DNA from: an uncultured Nitrospiraceae bacterium
GTDB lineage: Bacteria; Nitrospirota; Thermodesulfovibrionia; Thermodesulfovibrionales; SM23-35
Length of the DNA: 64,000 nucleotides
Assembly: GCA_963727775.1 (NCBI GenBank)
Contig: CAVSHB010000003.1
Coordinates: 192,001-256,000 of the forward strand
Direction of reading: 5' to 3'
The notes below the pieces were generated by a model. The model saw nothing but the letters and a program-made list of their open reading frames with translations. It had not been told where the DNA came from and did no database searches. A program made the translations under genes and the position numbers. Shown here in pieces: positions 10,078 to 32,083 of this stretch (within the stretch, counting starts at the first letter, position 1; every line of letters begins with the position of its first letter).

Positions 10078-11355
10078 CTAAGCAGCAATTGTTACCGTAT
10101 CCTGAAATCTCCGTTTGTCTCTTAAGAGTGCAAAGATTAGCTTGATCAGCTTTATTGCTACTGCGCACAGGATCTCTTTCTTCCTCGGCAGTTGACCAAA
10201 CCGGTTCTTTGTCTGCAATTTTCGTTGATAATATTCTTGAAAATAGTTGGTGAGGACTACCACCCTCATGCTCATAAAGAAAAGACACTTCCTTAAGAGC
10301 CAGCGTCCCTTTTTGGATATGAACTTGCGGCTTATCCTATAACCGGAATCGCTCTCCTGTGGATCATATCCTGCATATTTGACGATCTGACGGGCGTTTT
10401 GAAAATACGCCAGGTCTCCTAACTCTCCTAAGAAGATAGCGGCTGAAAGGGGGCCTATACCTGGGATGCTCAATAAATACTCCGAATAGGGGATCTCCTT
10501 TAGTGTGCTTTTCATCTGTCGGTCAATATCCTTGAGCATCAGTACGGTCCGTTTCACTTCTTCCAGACATATCTTTACCCTGTAGCGATCCGTACTGCCG
10601 ATTCGTTTTACTCCAATGCTCTTTATTGCTGCCTGCTGGAGAGCTTTTGCTTTTTCGGCTGCTCCCGCCTTCTTCCTTGAGCTGTGGGCGATCAGTTCCT
10701 TGATAACTGCGTGTTTCATCGATACCACATCCTCGGGAAACGGACACAAATCAAGGATTGCCCATAAACTCCGGGAATTCATTGACCAAAATATCTCATG
10801 CAGCTCAGGGAAATAGTCATCCAGTGCAGCATGAAGCGCATTTTTCGCTCCCACGCTATATCTCAAGAGTCTCTCCCTTACTTTCGACAATGTCCTTAGC
10901 TGTCTTACCACCCCGTCTTCAATTACGGTATCGATATATTTACCCTCTCTGGTGATATTCGCTATGGTCAATGCATCTCTTTTATCGCTCTTTGCAGAGG
11001 AACTCTCGTCAAGTTCCCGATGATGCTTCAGGGCCGTAGTCCGTACAAACCGAACTTCATAACCCTTCTCTTTTCCAAAGTAGGCAAGCTTCCTCCAGTA
11101 GTGCCCTGTCGGTTCCATCCCAATGAGCACGCTGTTCATGCCATACTTTGCTTTAAAACCCTCTGTCATCTTTACAAACTGCTCAAATCCTTCACGGTTG
11201 TTGTACAGTTTGGCGCAACTCCCCAACACGTTGCCCTCTTTGTTCATGAACCCCACCGCATTCCATGCATTCCCTACGTCCACTCCTATGACCAGGGTCT
11301 CCCTACTAATCCTTTCACGCTTTGCTACCTGCTTGTTATAATCTTTCTCAGACAT
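10078..11355 (-). CDS. IS110-family DEDD recombinase/transposase
   Basis: IGVDVG, GMEPTGHY, KSDKRDA, SIPGIG and SDSG motifs. Confidence 0.95.
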   Translation of the reverse strand: MSEKDYNKQVAKRERISRETLVIGVDVGNAWNAVGFMNKEGNVLGSCAKLYNNREGFEQFVKMTEGFKAKYGMNSVLIGMEPTGHYWRKLAYFGKEKGYEVRFVRTTALKHHRELDESSSAKSDKRDALTIANITREGKYIDTVIEDGVVRQLRTLSKVRERLLRYSVGAKNALHAALDDYFPELHEIFWSMNSRSLWAILDLCPFPEDVVSMKHAVIKELIAHSSRKKAGAAEKAKALQQAAIKSIGVKRIGSTDRYRVKICLEEVKRTVLMLKDIDRQMKSTLKEIPYSEYLLSIPGIGPLSAAIFLGELGDLAYFQNARQIVKYAGYDPQESDSGYRISRKFISKKGRWLLRKCLFFMSMRVVVLTNYFQEYYQRKLQTKNRFGQLPRKKEILCAVAIKLIKLIFALLRDKRRFQDTVTIAA

Positions 11356-12680: not shown

Positions 12681-12707
12681 AGAACTAAACCGCTGCGCGG
12701 TGGTAAC
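12681..12707 (+). repeat. 27-bp exact copy of the left end of the IS91-like element (21039-21065)
   Basis: AGAACTAAACCGCTGCGCGGTGGTAAC at both positions. Confidence 0.85.
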
Positions 12708-12971
12708 CGTGTGCCATCATGAACTGGTTGATACAAGAACAATTCGTTTTCATATTGGGAGTTCTGGATACCCATTCATCCCTCCTGACAGGGAGATTTT
12801 AGAGGGAGCGGCCGACCACACCTTCTCCCTATAACTCGCGTTCGAGTCCACATCCAAAAGTTTAATCAATAGTTTGAATTAAGTGTTGATTACCAGTTAA
12901 AGGACACATAAGAAAGAGACAGGATGTCCCGGGCTATCATAATGAACTCTCCTCAAAAAGGGGCTCACCTA

Positions 12972-20777: not shown

Positions 20778-21223
20778 TCCATCCTCCTTACAAATTCGGT
20801 CACTATTCCTATCGCTATCGTGATAATTATATCAAAAGAGGAAACGTAATATAGGATATATGTCTGCTTTCTTCAAAATTAGTCAATTGAACCTGGAATA
20901 ATGTCATCCTTATAGGGTGCGGGCAACGGGGTCTTTCTTCTTACGGTCAAAGCTGGAGGTTGAGTCTGCCATCACAACAGTTTCCGCTTGTACTCCAGAG
21001 ATTAGGCAGAATATTCAGAAGTCTCAGTTTCTATGCGTAGAACTAAACCGCTGCGCGGTGGTAACGAGGCGTCGATCTTTTCTGGATAAAGATAGACCTT
21101 TTTCTGAGTTGTAGAAGTTAGCCCGTTATCTCCCCCCTTGTTGAAGAGTCGAAGTCTTTTTACAATCTCCTTTGTTTCCCCGTCGGCCTTCGTCGGCGCA
21201 TATCGATTCAAAGGAGATGTAAT

Positions 21224-22066
21224 ATGAGCACGTGGAGAGAACAGATGTTGACAGACCTTTAGTTGAAAGGCATCACCCCCAGGACCCAGAATAAATATCT
21301 CAGAGAGGTTAACATGAAGGCGGATTATTTTGATAAACCGCTTGAGGAACTTAGGGAGAAAGAAGTAAAGGATTATCTGGTTCATATGCTGGATACCAGG
21401 AAGTTATCAAGAGGTACGTACAGAGGCTATGTGGCAGGAATCAAGTTTTTGTATAAGACAACCTTAAATCGTGAAGAGGTGGTAGAGAAGATCCAATATC
21501 CGAAGGCCAAAAAAACGCTGCCCGTAGTGCTGGATCTTGCTGAAATCAAGACTTTGCTTTCCGTCATGGAGAATCTTAAGCACAGGGCGCTGCTGACGAT
21601 TACCTATTCCGCAGGACTGAGAGTCAGCGAAGCAGCAAAGCTGAAGGTGACCGATATAGACAGCAAGCGGATGATGGTACGTGTGCAACAGGGCAAGGGT
21701 AGGAAGGACCGCTATAGCATCCTGTCGCAAACCGCCCTCGAGTTATTGAGGCAATACTGGCGGCAGTATCGTCCAAAGGAATGGTTATTCGAGGGACAGA
21801 AAGAAGGTACCCACATATGCTATACGGCGATACGGCAGATATTTGTTGAAGCCATGAAGAGGGCTGGCATTACAAAACCGGCGAGCCCTCATACCCTAAG
21901 GCACAGTTTTGCCACTCATCTGATAGAGGCGGGGACCAGCCTGCACCATGTCCAGTTGCTCCTGGGCCACAGGTCTCCCACAACCACAACCGTTTATCTT
22001 CATGTCAGCAAGATGAACCTCGCACAGGTCACCAGTCCCCTCGATAGTATACCCGAAGAGCTTTAA
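21224..22066 (+). pseudogene. Tyrosine recombinase (integron-integrase/XerD-like) with premature TAG at codon 13
   Basis: RBS AAGGAG, then MSTWREQMLTDL*LKG. Catalytic R (GLRVSE), K, HTLRH, LGH and Y are intact downstream. Confidence 0.8.
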
Positions 22067-23158
22067 AGCTTTTAACGGTATCATCGATGCGGACGTCTCA
22101 GGGCGTCGAGGTGGCCGATATCTTCCGTCAGTACGGTCAAGATCCCACCGGATGCCTATTAATCATCTGCGTGCTATGCACGCCATTGAGGTGTGCAGGA
22201 CTGCAATTCTTGGCGGACATAGGTATAAGTACACTTGCGGCCATGTAGACACATCTTACAACTCTTGCCGGAACAGGCACTGTCCCAAGTGTCAGACACT
22301 GCAGAAGGAAAAGTGGATAGAGGCCAGGTGTGAGAAGACCTATTGCCCATTCAATACTTCCAATGTGGGCTTCACCATACCATCAGAGTTAAATCCCCTG
22401 GTCATTATGAACCAGAGGGTCATGTACAACATATTATTCTGCTCGGTATCCGAGACACTTATGGAGCTCTCCAATAATCCGAAACACCTCGGCGCACATA
22501 CAGGCTTTATCGGCATCCTTCACACCTGGGGACAAAACCTTATGGATCATCCCCATATTCACTGTGTCGTACCCGGCGGCGGATTGTCACCTGATGGAAA
22601 ACATTGGGTATCGTGCAGGAAAGGTTTTTTCATGCCTGTAAGGGTTATGTCCTCATTGTTCAGGGGCAAGTTCCTGGACCATCTCAAAAACAGGTTTGAA
22701 TCAGGTGATCTTATCTTCCCTGGCGGTATCCGTCATCTTAAAGACCCCGGAACCTTTGAGGTGTTCAGAGGACAGTTCTACCATAAGAAGTGGGTTGTAT
22801 ATTGCAAGCCGCCTTTTGACGGCGCCGAGGGTGTCTTTAAGTATCTGGGCAGATATACCCACAGGATTGCTATCAGTAATAATCGTGTCCTAAACGTTGA
22901 AGACGGCAATGTTTCCTTCCGCTGGCGGGACTATGCCGATGGTGATAAACAAAAGATCATGACTCTTAAGGCCGATGAGTTCATAAGAAGGTTCCTTCTT
23001 CATGTGCTTCCGCATCGATTTGTGCGCATAAGATTATGTGTTTAAGCACATAACCTGATTTATGTTATATATTCACTTATGTTGCGTCGTTTGTGAAAGG
23101 CCTTGTTATTGCACAATGTCATCGTTAACGACACAACATAAGTAAATCCCTCTTCGGG

Positions 23159-24154
23159 TTAAAGTGCTTTTAAGAATGCCATCAACCCCGGCTGATCTTT
23201 CCACCGTCTTGATTGCTCTGAAGTAAATATCTCACAGTGGGCAAGTGCCTTTGCCTTCATTTCGAGATCGACCTCAGCATAGACATTTGTGGTATCTAGC
23301 GACACATGCCCCAGCCATGCACGGATTGTATTAATATCCACACCTGCGCGAAGAAGGTGAACTGCGCAGGTATGACGAATTATATGTGCACTGACTCTTT
23401 TCGTTCTCATTGAGGGGACTTTGTTGCTTGCTTTGATAACATAACGCCTAACGAGGGCATGAATGCCGAAGCGAGTGATTGTCTGCCCCCGACAGTTGAG
23501 GAAAACCTGTTCGCTATCCTGGCGATCGGCAATGAGAGTGCGTAAAGTATTGGCTGTTAAAGACCATAAAGGACAGATTCGTGTCTTGCCTCCCTTGCCT
23601 TTAATCTTGACTGAAAGCGAATAATCCAGGTCGAGATCGTCTACAGTCATATTCGCAGCTTCATGGGCGCGGGCGCCAGTATTGTAAAGAAAAAGAAGTA
23701 CGGCATAATCTCTAAAGCCTTGTTTGGTGGAAGTAACGGGAGCATTAAGCAGGGCATCCATTTCTTGTTTGTCGAGATAAGACATCGCAGCCTTTGCAGT
23801 TTTTTTGAAAGGGATAGCTCTGATCTGTCCACACCAGATGATGTGTTCCGGACATCGTTCGCCGATAAAACCGGCGAGGGCGTGAATTGCGGCAAGGCGC
23901 TGGTTGCGAGTGGCTATAGAACAGGATCGATGCTCCTCTATATAAAGCAGAAAAAGACGAATTACCTCAGGGGATATATGCTCTACAAGCAGCTTGTCTA
24001 TAGGTTTTCTGACCTTCTCAGCGATGAAAGGGAGCATCAAGGCCAGAGCATCGCGATAACTGGATTGTGTATTTAGCGACAGATTACGCTCTTCCACCAA
24101 GTATTCCATAAGGAAGCGTCGCACCCAATATCCGATAGAAGTTACGTTAGACAT
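23159..24154 (-). CDS. ritC: RIT tyrosine recombinase C
   Basis: SYRDAL, TRNQRLAAI, GAR, HIIRH and LGHVSLDTTNVY motifs. Confidence 0.9.
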   Translation of the reverse strand: MSNVTSIGYWVRRFLMEYLVEERNLSLNTQSSYRDALALMLPFIAEKVRKPIDKLLVEHISPEVIRLFLLYIEEHRSCSIATRNQRLAAIHALAGFIGERCPEHIIWCGQIRAIPFKKTAKAAMSYLDKQEMDALLNAPVTSTKQGFRDYAVLLFLYNTGARAHEAANMTVDDLDLDYSLSVKIKGKGGKTRICPLWSLTANTLRTLIADRQDSEQVFLNCRGQTITRFGIHALVRRYVIKASNKVPSMRTKRVSAHIIRHTCAVHLLRAGVDINTIRAWLGHVSLDTTNVYAEVDLEMKAKALAHCEIFTSEQSRRWKDQPGLMAFLKAL

Positions 24155-25091
24155 GATTCACGTCCGATAGAACATAATGTTCAAAACGCAAATTTGCTTC
24201 CCGCAAAAGATCAGGAGTCATGCTCAAATAGCATTGGGTCTCCGCCACATCAGTATGGCCCAAATAGGTTGATAATTGAGGCAGCAAGCGCTGGACATCA
24301 GCGCCTTCCCGGTACCAGGCTTCAAGACGGTGAACTGAAAAAGTGTGACGAAGGTCGTGAATCCTGGGATAGTATCGAGTGCCGTCCCGGCGAGGCATCC
24401 CGGATAGGTTTCGCAAACGACTGAAAGTTTTTTGCATGCGGCCATAGGATAAAGCGTGGCCAGTGCGTGTGGCAAAAAAGGCGGAATCTTCCTTAAGTCG
24501 GCAGGGCAACAGTCGCCTTTTTCCCAGATAGGAGTCAAGGTGGTCAGTTAACCGAGGGCCGATGGGTACGAGACGTGTCTTATAGAATTTGGTATTGCGC
24601 ACTGTGATAAGGCTATCCGAAACGTTAACATCAGCAATCGTTAGAGAAAGCGCTTCGCTGATACGAAGGCCTGTTCCATAAAGGGTAAGCAAAATGGTTC
24701 GGAAGGTGGTTGCCTGAAGAGGACTTATTGGGGATTTAAGCGAGTTGGTAGCGGAAAGGAGGCGGTGCAGTTCCTCGGTGGTGTAAATATATGGTTCCAG
24801 AGTCGCCGGACGTTTAGGTACCATCTTTGGAAGCGGAGACTTGTCGATATGACCATGGGTCAGAGCAAAGCGATAGAAACCACAGAGGACTTCATACTTC
24901 CGGTGCCAGAAGGTAGTGATCGGACCTTCACCTGCAAGGAATGCTGCTGCAGTATCGGGATTAACTTCTTCGATCTCTATATCGCCCATAGCTTTGCAAA
25001 AAGATCTGAGTACCACAGCATCAGACCGGTAACACATACCAATGGACTGTTTTAGCGACACATACTCGGTAACAAGTTCTGAGAGTTTCAT
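24147..25091 (-). CDS. ritB: RIT tyrosine recombinase B
   Basis: PYIYT, GLRISEAL, TKFYKTRLVP, HDLRHTF and LSTYLGH motifs. Confidence 0.9.
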   Translation of the reverse strand: MKLSELVTEYVSLKQSIGMCYRSDAVVLRSFCKAMGDIEIEEVNPDTAAAFLAGEGPITTFWHRKYEVLCGFYRFALTHGHIDKSPLPKMVPKRPATLEPYIYTTEELHRLLSATNSLKSPISPLQATTFRTILLTLYGTGLRISEALSLTIADVNVSDSLITVRNTKFYKTRLVPIGPRLTDHLDSYLGKRRLLPCRLKEDSAFFATRTGHALSYGRMQKTFSRLRNLSGMPRRDGTRYYPRIHDLRHTFSVHRLEAWYREGADVQRLLPQLSTYLGHTDVAETQCYLSMTPDLLREANLRFEHYVLSDVNHV

Positions 25092-26328
25092 TCCAGCCCT
25101 CCCATATCAAACTTAGCTACCTCGCGAAGACCTGACAGATTCACCTTGGCATAGATCCTCGTGGAGAGAGAACTTCGATGCCCTAGGTGATCGCCGACCT
25201 CCTTGAGGGAGAAGCCCTCGGCAACCAGGTGGGCGGCGCACGCATGCCGCAATGAGTGGGGCCCATGATGGTGAGTGCGTATCCCGAGCTTCACCATTCT
25301 GTTACTGACCACAGGATAAAGTGCTCCTAATGAAAAAGGACGATATGGGGGCAAGAGAGTGAGAAATATCTCTCGATATGAAGAGTGGGGACGCACTTCC
25401 TGTAAATAGCGGATTATCGCGTTGCCTACTATTGGGATCAATGGGTATGTTTGTCTTCCTCTCAGCTTAACTCGGGGTACCGACATAAGTCTCTGTTCCC
25501 AGTCGATATCGTCAAGCCTGAGAGTTGCTACCTCAGTTGATCTCAACCCATAGATCGCAAAAAGCATCACGATGGGTTTGTCTCGTATGTCACTGGCTTG
25601 ATCTGTCTCCATGCTCTCTATCAAGAGTCTCACGTTTCCCCAAGATGGTCCCGACGGCAATTGTTCTTGGGCAAAGATACGAGGGCCACGTATATCGGGG
25701 GCAATTGAAGACGAACACCACCCCCGTGAAGCCGCGTACTTGAAAAAGGCCTTCAGCGCGGTCGCCATGTGTTTAACCGATATGCGACAATTGCCCTTGT
25801 CACCGTAATGGGTAAGAAACGCGTCAATATCTTTGAGGCAAACGGCTGAGATATCACAACTCCGAGTGCCATACCAGCGTAGAAACCGTTCAACGTAAGA
25901 GCAGTTCCCTCGGATAGTCTGAGAAGTGAACCCTCGTTCGTTCTTCATCCATGTCCTGAAATCTTCAAGCAAATGACCAAACGGAATGGAAGTATCTTCT
26001 CTCCAACAGCCCAAAAAACGTAGCCACGATCTTGCTGCATTGACAAAGCGACTGCGAGTACAGTGCGGATTAAGCGCTTTTCCCCAATATCGTTCCCGTT
26101 CTGTCCATCCTCGGGCAACAGCTCGACCTGATTCAGGGTTACTCCGTTTTCAAAAGAAATACGTAGCTTCTTTGCGACCCATAAAAGTTCTCGCGCAATG
26201 TTCTGTAAAGTCGAGAGAGAATATCCTTCTTGCTCGCAGTGCTTAAGATAACGCTCCCTCTCCTCTTTGTACGGGGCCTTCTTGTGACGGGATAGAATTG
26301 AGAGTTTTGTGTAAAGCTTTTCAAACAT
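25088..26328 (-). pseudogene. ritA: RIT tyrosine recombinase A with a frameshift near 26122
   Basis: MFEKLY...ERERYLKH N-terminus in one frame; AVARGW...GLRSTE, HSLRH, LGH, TRIY in the next frame. Confidence 0.8.
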
Positions 26329-27106
26329 GACCGGACCTCCTCTAATAGAGACTTTCCAGCCATATAACGGCAATTACTTATGTGTTGTCAAATCAAAAAT
26401 AATCATTGCAAATTAAGAAAATTGACTGACTTCACAACATAAGTGAATACATAACATAAATCAGGCACTTCGGACTCCTCGCAAACAGAAAGCGTAAAGA
26501 CAACATCGCGCTATGCCGTAAGCTCATCGGCAGTTGTAAAACCGAAACAAAAGAAGAAGAAGAAGAAAAATCAGAGACCTGGCAGGATCAGTTGCTCAGA
26601 ATCTACGGTATCGATATCAATACCTGCCCGGTTTGCAAGAAGGGCACAATGGTCACGATTGAGTATTTGCTCCCTTCCAGGTGCAATAGCCCTCCGGATC
26701 GATACTGATGCACACCGGCGATAGCTCAAAAATCATAGCTCTATCAACCTGCGAAAACAGCATCCTGTTTCGCTATGCTCCCCTATTGTCTGAAATCAGA
26801 CCTTGGGATACTATCCAGCTGCAATGGTCGCAATCTCAGCCTCAATTTTCGTATCAGGATGATCTCATGCAGATCAAAATAAGACAGATGCTCCATAAAC
26901 CATATCCTCTTCGATAGAAAAAGTTCCGGGAGAATTAATCGAATCCCCATATCCGGCGCACCGGCTTAGTTATATATAGAAATGGCATAAGATCAAACTT
27001 CCCCATTCAATCATAAGGGAGACTAATTTTATAGCTATTAAAAAATAGAAACCTCCTGTAAGAATAAGTTTATGGAGAAACAAAATTCTTTTGACAGGAG
27101 GTTTCT

Positions 27107-28399
27107 ATGGAACAAGTAGATGGTATCAGACTTAGGGAGTTTCGACAAGTCAAGAAAGAGATACGTGGCTCCGATCAGTATTTGATCATCGGCATCGACG
27201 TGGCTAAAGAGAAGCACAATGCCTTTTTCGGCACGGCTAACGGCAAAACGCTGCACAAGGGAGTGATCTTTGACAACACGATTGAAGGATTCGAGAAACT
27301 GCTGACGCTGACAGAAGCGCTTAAGGTCCAGCATGACCTTACAAAGGTGGTCTTTGGTCTTGAGCCCACAGCCAATTACCATAAGCCTCTGGGAGAGCAT
27401 CTTATTAAGTGTGGGCATATGGTTGTTTTGGTAGCGGGGACGGCAGTAAAAAACAACCGCACGCTTCTGGATGGCAGATGGGATAAGCACGACACCAAGG
27501 ATTCCTCTAACGTAGCCGACCTCATTTCCCAAGGGAAATTCCTATTCTATGAATATCCGGATCCGAAGATGCGGGATCTGAGGAATCTCCTTTCCTTAAA
27601 GAGACGACTCAAGAAAGAGGAACATGGCCTCCGGGTTCGCATCCGCAATCAGCTTCTGGCCCAGTATTTCCCTGAAATGGACCGCCACTTCGGCCCAGCG
27701 GTGAGCATGGCTGTAGTCGGACGCTGTCTTAATCCCTCGGTGATCGCCGGGATGGAATTCGATGAATTCCGCAGGCACGTTGCCCTCAGCAGAATGAATA
27801 TTGCCCAACAAAAGCTGCTGCAGGCGATCTGGCAGATAGCCCCTGATTCCATTGGATGTTATGTAGGAGACGCAGTGCCGTTCGAGGCGAAGGTGATGGT
27901 ATCCATGCTTAATCAGGTGCGAGAGACGATCAAAGAGGTGGAAGATAAAATAGAGGATATGTGCCTACAGTTTCCGGAATACCCATGCCTTTTGAGTATC
28001 CCTGGCTTTGGGCCGGATGTCTCATCAAAGGTTCTCGGGGCGATAGGTAATCCCTTTCGCTTTACGAGCGACAAGCAGGTCCTGAAGATGGCTGGTTTCG
28101 ACCTTTGCGCGGAGCGAAGCGGAAAGACTTCAAACAGCGTAACGCCGGTAATCTCCAAACAAGGGAAAGCCGATCTTCGCTACGCCTTATATCAGGCTGC
28201 TCTAATCGCTTCCTTTCATAACAAAGATTTTACGATTTATTACACCAATAAGCTCAGAGGTCGGCAGAGGGAAAAGGGAATTAGTACGAAGATGCGTGTA
28301 AAGATAGCCGCAAAGCTTTTGGTTATCGCATGGACCTTGATGAAAAAGAAGGAGCTATTCGATCCAAAATATCTCAATAAGGGGGATATCCAAATATAG
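27107..28399 (+). CDS. IS110-family DEDD recombinase/transposase
   Basis: IGIDVAK, GLEPTANY, KHDTKDS, SIPGFG and ERSGK motifs. Confidence 0.95.
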   Translation: MEQVDGIRLREFRQVKKEIRGSDQYLIIGIDVAKEKHNAFFGTANGKTLHKGVIFDNTIEGFEKLLTLTEALKVQHDLTKVVFGLEPTANYHKPLGEHLIKCGHMVVLVAGTAVKNNRTLLDGRWDKHDTKDSSNVADLISQGKFLFYEYPDPKMRDLRNLLSLKRRLKKEEHGLRVRIRNQLLAQYFPEMDRHFGPAVSMAVVGRCLNPSVIAGMEFDEFRRHVALSRMNIAQQKLLQAIWQIAPDSIGCYVGDAVPFEAKVMVSMLNQVRETIKEVEDKIEDMCLQFPEYPCLLSIPGFGPDVSSKVLGAIGNPFRFTSDKQVLKMAGFDLCAERSGKTSNSVTPVISKQGKADLRYALYQAALIASFHNKDFTIYYTNKLRGRQREKGISTKMRVKIAAKLLVIAWTLMKKKELFDPKYLNKGDIQI

Positions 28400-28468
28400 G
28401 CCACATCAAAAGAACTTAACTGAGGGCTTCCTGTGAAGCCGTTTCTGTTCTGGAGGCCCCAAAAACAA

Positions 28469-28647
28469 GACGCAGAGAGCCCGAGCTTGGCTTAGTTGAG
28501 GCGAAAGACCTCGTGGAGAACAATATAGGGCCTATCACTGAACTTGAGAGTCTGGATAAGGGATGATGGGCGGTACGCTCAATGCGGAACACGTCGGATA
28601 AACGTAACTATCAGAGATCAAGTTCGATTGTAGTGAGAGAGTGCGTC
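28469..28647 (+). ncRNA. Bridge RNA of IS110 #2
   Basis: Outer stem GACGCA/TGCGTC. Target loop GGCTTAGTT-hairpin-GTGGAGAAC matches the insertion site. Second arm closed by GAACTTGA/TCAAGTTC. Confidence 0.8.
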
Positions 28648-28776
28648 GAGAAAAAATACTATCGTCCAGATGGACGTACGGCAGACTATTGTTCTTGCAA
28701 GATCTCGGATAACGATCATTGATATTTAAGTAAATTTCCCAGATGTTTTTTGTCTTGACAGGAGGCACTATAGGAT

Positions 28777-28825
28777 GTTCTCCACACGTTATTCCGCAAC
28801 TTCGCAGCGGAATAACGCTTATTCG
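28777..28825 (+). repeat. 49-bp hairpin-containing repeat, copy 1
   Basis: GTTCTCCACACGTTATTCCGCAACTTCGCAGCGGAATAACGCTTATTCG; exact inverted copy at 32026-32074. Confidence 0.9.
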
Positions 28826-29119
28826 TAATCAATAAAACCCGCCTTTTTTTGTGAAAAACATCCCCGTGTATTACGTAAAAACAGAACGAGAATCCGCAGC
28901 CCCAAACAGCCGTTATCTTTTTCAGGCGTACATCCATAGGTATCGCCTACAGCCTTTGTATGGCGGTAATTTTTACTTGCAAAAGAAAGTGGCCTTTGCT
29001 AATAATAACTCACCTTAGTTTTTAAAGGAGACCTTATATGCATGTAAAGATGAGCAGCCTGATCAAGACGTTTGGTATGGTAGCGGGGTTGATAGTGGTC
29101 TTCGCTTTGTGGGCGTCTG

Positions 29120-32025: not shown

Positions 32026-32083
32026 CGAATAAGCGTTATTCCGCTGCGAAGTTGCGGAATAACGTGTGGAGAACGCTTATTCG
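32026..32083 (-). repeat. 49-bp repeat, copy 2 (inverted), extended into a 58-bp imperfect palindrome
   Basis: Reverse complement of 28777-28825; CGAATAAGCGTT...AACGCTTATTCG arms. Confidence 0.9.

Follow-up and report, generated by a model that had tools for sequence, protein, structure and literature searches.

Partridge and Hall reportedly found in 2003 that IS4321 and IS5075 target the ends of Tn21. Other members of the IS110 family are described with different targets. In the portions of PMC11187229 available, ISKpn4 and ISPst6 target attC sites, ISPa11 targets REP sequences, and ISEc21, whose non-coding region lies upstream, is aimed at the DDE codons in transposases of the IS3 family. 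The subterminal inverted repeats of the IS1111 group are given as 11–13 bp, and as 7–17 bp in the accessible part of PMC11208160. The element analysed here lies in a 64,000-nucleotide stretch of DNA (the window). It shares with IS621 and the IS110 group, as far as the available parts of PMC11208160 and PMC13626964 describe them, the DEDD and serine recombinase, a dinucleotide core, the lack of long subterminal repeats, and the order of target loop before donor loop and left guide before right guide. Its target is an end-associated motif of a second mobile element, the host, which carries a tyrosine integrase and a Y2 (IS91-like) transposase (Table 1).

Table 1. Features of the host element, the IS110-family element and its predicted RNA, with positions in the window.
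Feature	Positions	Strand	Remarks
Host left end, terIS-like by analogy	21040..21058	-	small palindrome, then GGTTTAGTTC; target motif of sister guides
Host tyrosine integrase	21224..22066	+	stop at codon 13
Host Y2 (IS91-family) transposase, 5' part	22152..23045	+	NF033538, 363.7 bits
Three-integrase element	23033..26465	-	44-bp inverted repeats; splits the Y2 gene; left boundary approximate
3' remainder of host Y2 gene	26466..26708	+	aligns to the G005 element
Left half of target and core (CGGCTTA-GT)	26962..26970	+	within the subterminal mirror motif of the host
IS110-family element	26971..28778	+	1808 bp, with the core GT included only at 28777-28778
IS110 recombinase gene	27107..28399	+	430 aa
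Predicted left target guide, TGGCTTA-GT	28488..28496	+	TGGCTTAGT; co-varies with the left flank in homologues
Predicted right target guide	28513..28521	+	GTGGAGAAC; reverse complement GT-TCTCC-AC
Predicted left donor guide	28554..28564	+	variable letter is that of the element's own right end
Candidate right donor guide	28600..28608	+	final letters TAAC, complementary to GT-TA; visual assignment
Predicted -35, TTGACA	28755..28760	+	promoter formed at the computed circle junction
Host right end, last 46 bp	28779..28824	+	TCTCC, hairpin (arms 28787-28797, 28807-28817), terminus GCTTATTC
Hybrid scar	32027..32082	-	GAATAAGC (left target of a sister guide), GT, TCTCC... of this guide, origin hairpin

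The IS110-family element and its predicted bridge RNA

The boundaries of the IS110 element were set by four full copies in the genome, which had common ends and differing flanks. As is usual in the IS110 family, both junctions shared a dinucleotide core, here GT (26969–26970 and 28777–28778), and it was the same in all four copies. In-silico removal of the element restored GGCTTA-GT-TCTCCAC. The assignment of the recombinase gene to IS110 in the first-pass annotation was confirmed by domain and NCBIfam matches. A profile search matched the product to PF01548 and PF02371, and NF033542 gave 168.8 bits (cut-off 140). Residues D31, E86, D129, D132 and S338 aligned with the catalytic positions of IS621, and the protein showed the DEDD RuvC-like domain and the C-terminal domain with a catalytic serine that define the family.

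The non-coding ends measured 136 bp on the left and 379 bp on the right, the longer one lying 3' of the gene, as in the IS1111 group and also in some IS110-type elements. The longest perfect inverted repeat between the first and last 60 nt was 5 nt. The IS1111 order, in which the top-strand match lies 5' of the bottom-strand match, was absent, and the guide order was IS110-type. Membership of the IS1111 group was rejected because of the lack of subterminal repeats above 5 nt and because of this guide order. A more distant IS110 family (27% identity) was also present in several copies (window 10105–11334; G000 C3:107067–108296), one of them 850 bp from a copy of the studied IS110 that lies off the host element.

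Inside the 3' non-coding region, the sequence offers predicted loops complementary to target and donor, as expected of the IS110 family. The two predicted target guides match the left and the right flank, respectively, exactly over 9 letters and together spell (T/C)GGCTTA-GT-TCTCC. For 21 distinct guides from homologues in which both flanks could be read, three of them kept despite a parsing offset, the mean guide–flank identity was 8.71/12 versus 5.22 for shuffled pairs, and none of 10,000 shuffles scored as high. The donor-guide letter equalled the element-end letter in 57/57 parsed loci (39 G/G, 16 T/T and 2 A/A), these loci being relatives rather than independent cases. Because guide and flank covary beyond shuffles, and the donor guide covaries with the element's own end, the 3' non-coding region behaves as a bridge RNA at the sequence level. 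An Rfam scan of 20900–29000 returned no family, and the fold of the whole right end of the IS110 gave an uninformative z-score of −1.0. The computed circle junction showed a perfect −35 and a −10 with 4/6 letters; the promoter scan of the linear element gave no hit. Contigs of the sequencing runs examined, which are uninformative on circles, held no circle joints.

The host element and the position of the target motif

The Y2 gene of the host was matched in 13/57 family genomes. As in the IS91 family, the transposase is a Y2 HUH enzyme, its gene being broken in this copy, and T mostly occupies position 2 beside the oriIS-like end. The Y2 gene carries indels relative to an intact relative, and the assembly held no intact Y2 of this host subgroup (a contig end truncates one copy). 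The three-integrase element, which we take to be RIT-like, was found inverted at the same Y2 position in the copy at C1:340431–343843.

Eleven distinct left junctions diverged directly after GTTC, so that the terIS-like palindrome lies beside a GTTC-type site. On the right, the host terminus at 28824 was followed by GTAA (reverse complement TTAC). Empty host copies, read in relatives L098, L101, L104, L099, L110 and L116, ran through GGCTTAGTCC-TTCACAC, then the hairpin, then CGCTTATTC. Three identical G005 host copies diverged only past CGCTTATTC, and contigs in two sequencing runs linked the same empty motif to the hairpin. The letters beside the right end fitted N-T-N-C in 15 of 18 distinct junctions, and because C was present in 18/18, the right-boundary call is ±1. 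By analogy with IS91, IS801 and IS1294, as presented in the available part of PMC13181058, the left end would be terIS-like and the right end oriIS-like, with nick positions assigned on the same basis. The possibility that the hairpin belongs to host chromosome entered by the Y2 element was rejected, as the left flanks lacked the hairpin's other half. The right flank (window 28826–29100, upstream of a phospholipase D gene) has a 97% paralogue at G000 C3:82728–83003 whose continuation differs, so the two flanks of the host may not form a simple empty site.

Since the empty relatives continue through the hairpin to CGCTTATTC, where the G005 copies diverge, the IS110 crossover lies 46 bp inside the origin-side end of the host (28824), in the mirror copy of the left motif. 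AGAACTAAACC at 21039–21049 mirrors the target in 10/11 letters, as the first-pass annotation had noticed. The same annotation took the target for the right terminal motif, which does not agree with the further 46 bp present in empty relatives. Its placement of the insertion in the GTTC cleavage site of the host was wrong for this copy. The crossover falls on neither host boundary, and the GTTC found there is on the other strand from the left-boundary GTTC. The placement does fit two sister guides described below, L001, whose crossover is at the left end, and the truncated C2 copy. The broader idea of a guide aimed at the end of another element held as to an end-associated motif and failed as to the terminus itself.

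In the computed single-strand circle junction, the target motif paired with the left motif with −31.0 kcal/mol (shuffles −11.5, sd 2.4). The value was −18.6 kcal/mol with the IS110 in place and −30.2 kcal/mol for the G005 element. Among 29 loci examined, all 14 uninterrupted elements with both ends read (14/14) had the same letter after the subterminal motif as in the first host position past the left boundary; the independent support from this match is small because the elements form about three subgroups. Outside integrase+Y2 elements the subterminal motif was not seen. Judging from these sequence patterns, it is probably a functional recognition site of the host, so an IS110 insertion would impair some host step, though the terminal nick site is spared.

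The first-pass annotation suggested that the insertion may disable the host end, and the sequence has points on either side. The outer 46 bp of the host end are intact, and the host was already broken by the integrase stop, the Y2 indels and the three-integrase insertion. In three host copies that contain the IS, the outer junctions differ (TTAC, CTTC and TAAC, bottom strand), which would mean that these copies moved before the insertion or that the end went on working after it. On the other side, the predicted hairpin of the circle junction loses one of its arms through the insertion. According to the available part of PMC13181058, a functional mini-IS91 used the last 82 bp of the right end, and the IS110 insertion falls inside the last 82 bp of the host.

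Several further observations concern integrase+Y2 elements in general. Elements L097–L123 show a long target preference, NTNC followed by TWC-N5-GWAAT in the close subgroup and AAT/AAC in others, and this preference is mirrored by the elements' own subterminal motif. At the circle junction the fold resembles a long, imperfect hairpin; the integrase next to it is partly similar to integron integrases. Isolated 27–32 bp fragments of the host left end were found at window 12682–12708 and at G000 C1:1248422–1248453. Solo palindromes, presumably of the REP kind, consist of two origin ends of an integrase+Y2 element (L149–L151, L183–L187; G000 C1:630621, C3:359709). Some genomes that lack a close Y2 match have them too, and they are possibly non-autonomous derivatives.

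Sister copies, wider homologues and hybrid scars

Three of the four full IS110 copies in the genome lie at the host right-end motif and one lies off the element. Same-guide homologues did not sit mostly away from IS91-like ends, and the first-pass annotation stood in this respect. After the four copies were removed in silico, three genome sites matched the guide at 11/12, all occupied and all host right ends, while 8 sites matched at 10/12, one of them occupied. An exact empty site of this guide was not seen in the sequences examined. A 531-bp host segment was identical in all three occupied copies, which may descend from one insertion. The two C1 copies were identical over 1808 bp, and the window copy and the off-element copy shared three clustered differences from that pair, which could be gene conversion or polishing. 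Single-nucleotide differences among the four copies were ambiguous on the independence of the insertions.

Three sister elements carry related guides. The C1 sister (C1:291686) is frameshifted; its guide, AATAAGC-GT-CATTC, spells the origin terminus, it lies within a solo palindrome with this sequence, and its 7 other sites at 11/12 were all unoccupied. The C2 sister (C2:588546) is 5'-truncated and has the guide TGGTTTA-GT-TCTTC; its left flank is lost and its right flank resembles the left-end junction of the host. L001, from another genome (84% identity), has the guide TGGTTTA-GT-CCTTC and lies exactly in the host left end of an integrase+Y2 pair. In a tree of 67 coding sequences, with the truncated C2 copy left out, the window element, the C1 sister and L001 formed a clade with support 100/93. 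The sister guides together cover three host end motifs, and the bridge RNAs are 84–95% alike.

Guide letters follow the host letters. In this genome the left ends have GTTC, with TC paired by the local sister guide; in the L001 genome they have GTCC, and CC is paired by the L001 guide. A contig from another study, about 95% identical, shows two right-guide changes, both towards GT-CCTTC of the relatives' empty sites; it is a single contig of depth 4.9 with unseen flanks and 6 of its 19 differences unlisted. For the scoring of guides we used 43 host end regions, which came from relatives and, within this genome, from left ends that are empty. At least 11/12 was reached by 3/5 in-clade guides versus 0/32 out-of-clade guides and 0/2000 random guides. 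The best score of the window's guide on these regions was 9/12, a value reached by 196 of 2000 random guides, so this guide fits a local host variant. The earlier description of the site as a conserved safe harbour is thereby weakened.

The homologue set comprised the best 80 of 196 relatives found. Metagenomic homologues P0004–P0006 are closer, with 87–91% identity. Within these 80, one locus (1/80) lay at an integrase+Y2 end. The Y2 gene was present at 2/80, L001 and L068; L068 was rejected as support, since its nesting is reversed, with an integrase+Y2 element inside an IS110 gene of this family. The view of this IS110 as a specialist was thus borne out for the two nearest tree neighbours, whose guides match other end motifs of the same element family, and not for the wider relatives. 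As the sister guides match the host's other end motifs, the lineage likely specialises on the rival element. This specialism is recent and located in the guide, not in the protein.

Most relatives carry an AAC-GT-CCC guide, and some of them (L037, L052) lie in terminal repeats of Y1-transposase elements. More broadly, older-guide relatives L036, L037, L045, L052, L064 and L067 were seen at Y1-transposase or miniature elements, either inside the terminal inverted repeats or at gene ends. At 4/39 sites, and additionally at L037, a mirror partner reached at least 18/22, versus 1/195 control positions, and 20/22 sites of the AAC-GT-CCC class had no mirror partner within the locus. The candidate rule that this guide always hits Y1-element repeats was accordingly borne out only in part (4/39 mirror partners). 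Y1 genes lay within 110 bp of the IS in 8/80 loci of the best 80 of 196, and 5 of these 8 are the profile's own seeds. L074–L079, six copies with the guide CACAGTT-GT-AGGTG, occupy dispersed sites with a loose left-half match and form a natural mismatch-tolerance series. The guide pattern of the window was present in its own genome only (0/400 other genomes of the phylum), and the viral collection searched held no relative of the element. Sixteen metagenome matches to the 17-letter left flank showed no integrase, Y2 or IS110 similarity and were taken as chance.

The scar in the window (Table 1) has a counterpart at G000 C2:573934–573949, where the left target of the C1 sister is followed by GT and TCTTC, the right target of another guide. 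Both scars join exactly at IS110 GT cores. In the C2 scar, origin letters are joined to terminus letters between halves that fit the host target preference, and its sequence looks as if a whole host element had been removed between two IS110 crossover points. This pattern occurred twice here and in 0/56 family genomes (12 match Y2; many are incomplete). Taken as sequence, the scars hint at IS110-mediated deletion. According to the accessible part of PMC13626964, IS621 excises DNA between hybrid junctions of this kind, and expanded IS110 composites are reported in the available part of bioRxiv 10.64898/2026.08.14.744561. The scars could also stem from joining by microhomology at GT(T), from the host integrase or, in the case of C2, from 4 letters inserted into a truncated hairpin.

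A bolder picture is possible, although we hold it tentatively and think it doubtful. The IS110 clade would be at RNA-guided war with HUH transposons, having moved from terminal repeats of Y1 elements to integrase+Y2 elements and following their drift by compensatory guide changes. Sister copies at origin and terminus would let one recombination excise the whole rival, as a deletion or as a hijack in the form of an IS110 composite, with the C2 scar as its footprint.

Competing readings and comparison with known systems

The reading that we prefer, at a probability of roughly 0.72, is that of an intact IS110 element whose predicted bridge RNA likely steers insertion to GGCTTA-GT-TCTCC, a subterminal motif inside the origin-side end of the host, in a small clade likely retargeted onto host ends. 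By analogy with IS621, the element would be excised to a circle, the circle junction would supply a promoter, and strands would be exchanged at GT under RNA guidance. The clade would have been retargeted from the older AAC-GT-CCC guide, with one guide lineage directed at the inverted-repeat motif at either end and another at the origin hairpin. The likely gain is a landing pad that is repeated, non-coding, dispensable and possibly mobile.

It is rather unlikely that the clade uses abundant extragenic repeats, REP-like palindromes and remnants, merely as neutral pads, so that the link to a rival element is incidental and no conflict exists. The C1 sister sits in a solo palindrome rather than in a full element, and G018, G019 and G020 contain such palindromes and have no Y2 match at E ≤ 1e-60. 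L006, the clade's next neighbour, lies in a tandem palindromic repeat, the present host is in decay, and many IS110 elements use neutral landing pads. However, the restriction of the subterminal motif to integrase+Y2 elements, the position of L001 at the left end of such a pair in another genome and the guides that follow host variants speak for the host as the target. Quite improbable is the stronger form, in which the IS110 inserts into the GTTC nick site of the host and thereby disables the end. Its position is true for L001 and probably for the C2 sister, where the core is the GT of the left-boundary GTTC/GTCC, and the lost hairpin arm and the 82-bp limit of the mini-IS91 (PMC13181058, available part) would agree with it. 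The distance and strand of this copy's crossover, the three different outer junctions of IS-bearing copies and the independent lesions of the host argue against it. Scarcely credible is a single accident, one off-target insertion with guide drift, later duplicated with its host segment. The identical host segment and the identical C1 pair would suit such an origin, but L001, the sister guides and the variant on the 95%-identical contig are left unexplained, and the window copy shares its three clustered differences with the off-element copy and not with the C1 pair.

The locus offers a compact natural set of near-identical bridge RNAs against three cis-sites of one mobile element, and guide changes that match host variants provide a direct route to natural IS110 guide reprogramming. 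The set lets one ask whether nesting harms, spares or hijacks the host, and the guides flag a likely functional subterminal motif in integrase+Y2 elements, on which little has been described. Should the scars stem from IS110 activity, a rival element can be deleted by sister guides. The literature searched, which was without subscription papers, ISfinder and supplements, gave no report of an IS110 aimed at IS91-like ends. Aiming IS110 elements at other mobile elements is an already known strategy, and what was not found in that literature is the integrase+Y2 end as a type of target. As the strategy is known, the advance is incremental as long as neither deletion nor hijacking is demonstrated.

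Set against IS621, the present element differs in its RNA region 3' of the gene, the core GT, the length of 430 aa, the distant relationship (E 1e-15) and a target that is a transposon end motif. With IS4321 and IS5075 it shares the aim at the ends of another mobile element; those are IS1111-type elements with subterminal repeats that use Tn21's terminal inverted repeats, whereas the host here is of the HUH rolling-circle type and three end motifs are covered through sister guides. The IS1111-attC group and ISPa11, in the available part of PMC11187229, have a 3' non-coding region and a target in a foldable recombination site or palindrome, as here. Unlike the IS1111-attC group, this element is without subterminal repeats and has the IS110-type guide order. 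ISEc21 is likewise IS110-type and aimed at another insertion sequence, with natural guide redirection in relatives (PMC11187229, same part); there the target is DDE codons and the non-coding region is upstream, while here they are an end motif and a 3' region. The host resembles IS91, IS801 and IS1294, as far as described in the accessible part of PMC13181058, in its Y2 transposase, the left palindrome beside GTTC and the T-second tetranucleotide at the right end, and differs from them in having a tyrosine integrase, a target preference that is longer and, close to the right end, a mirror of the left motif.
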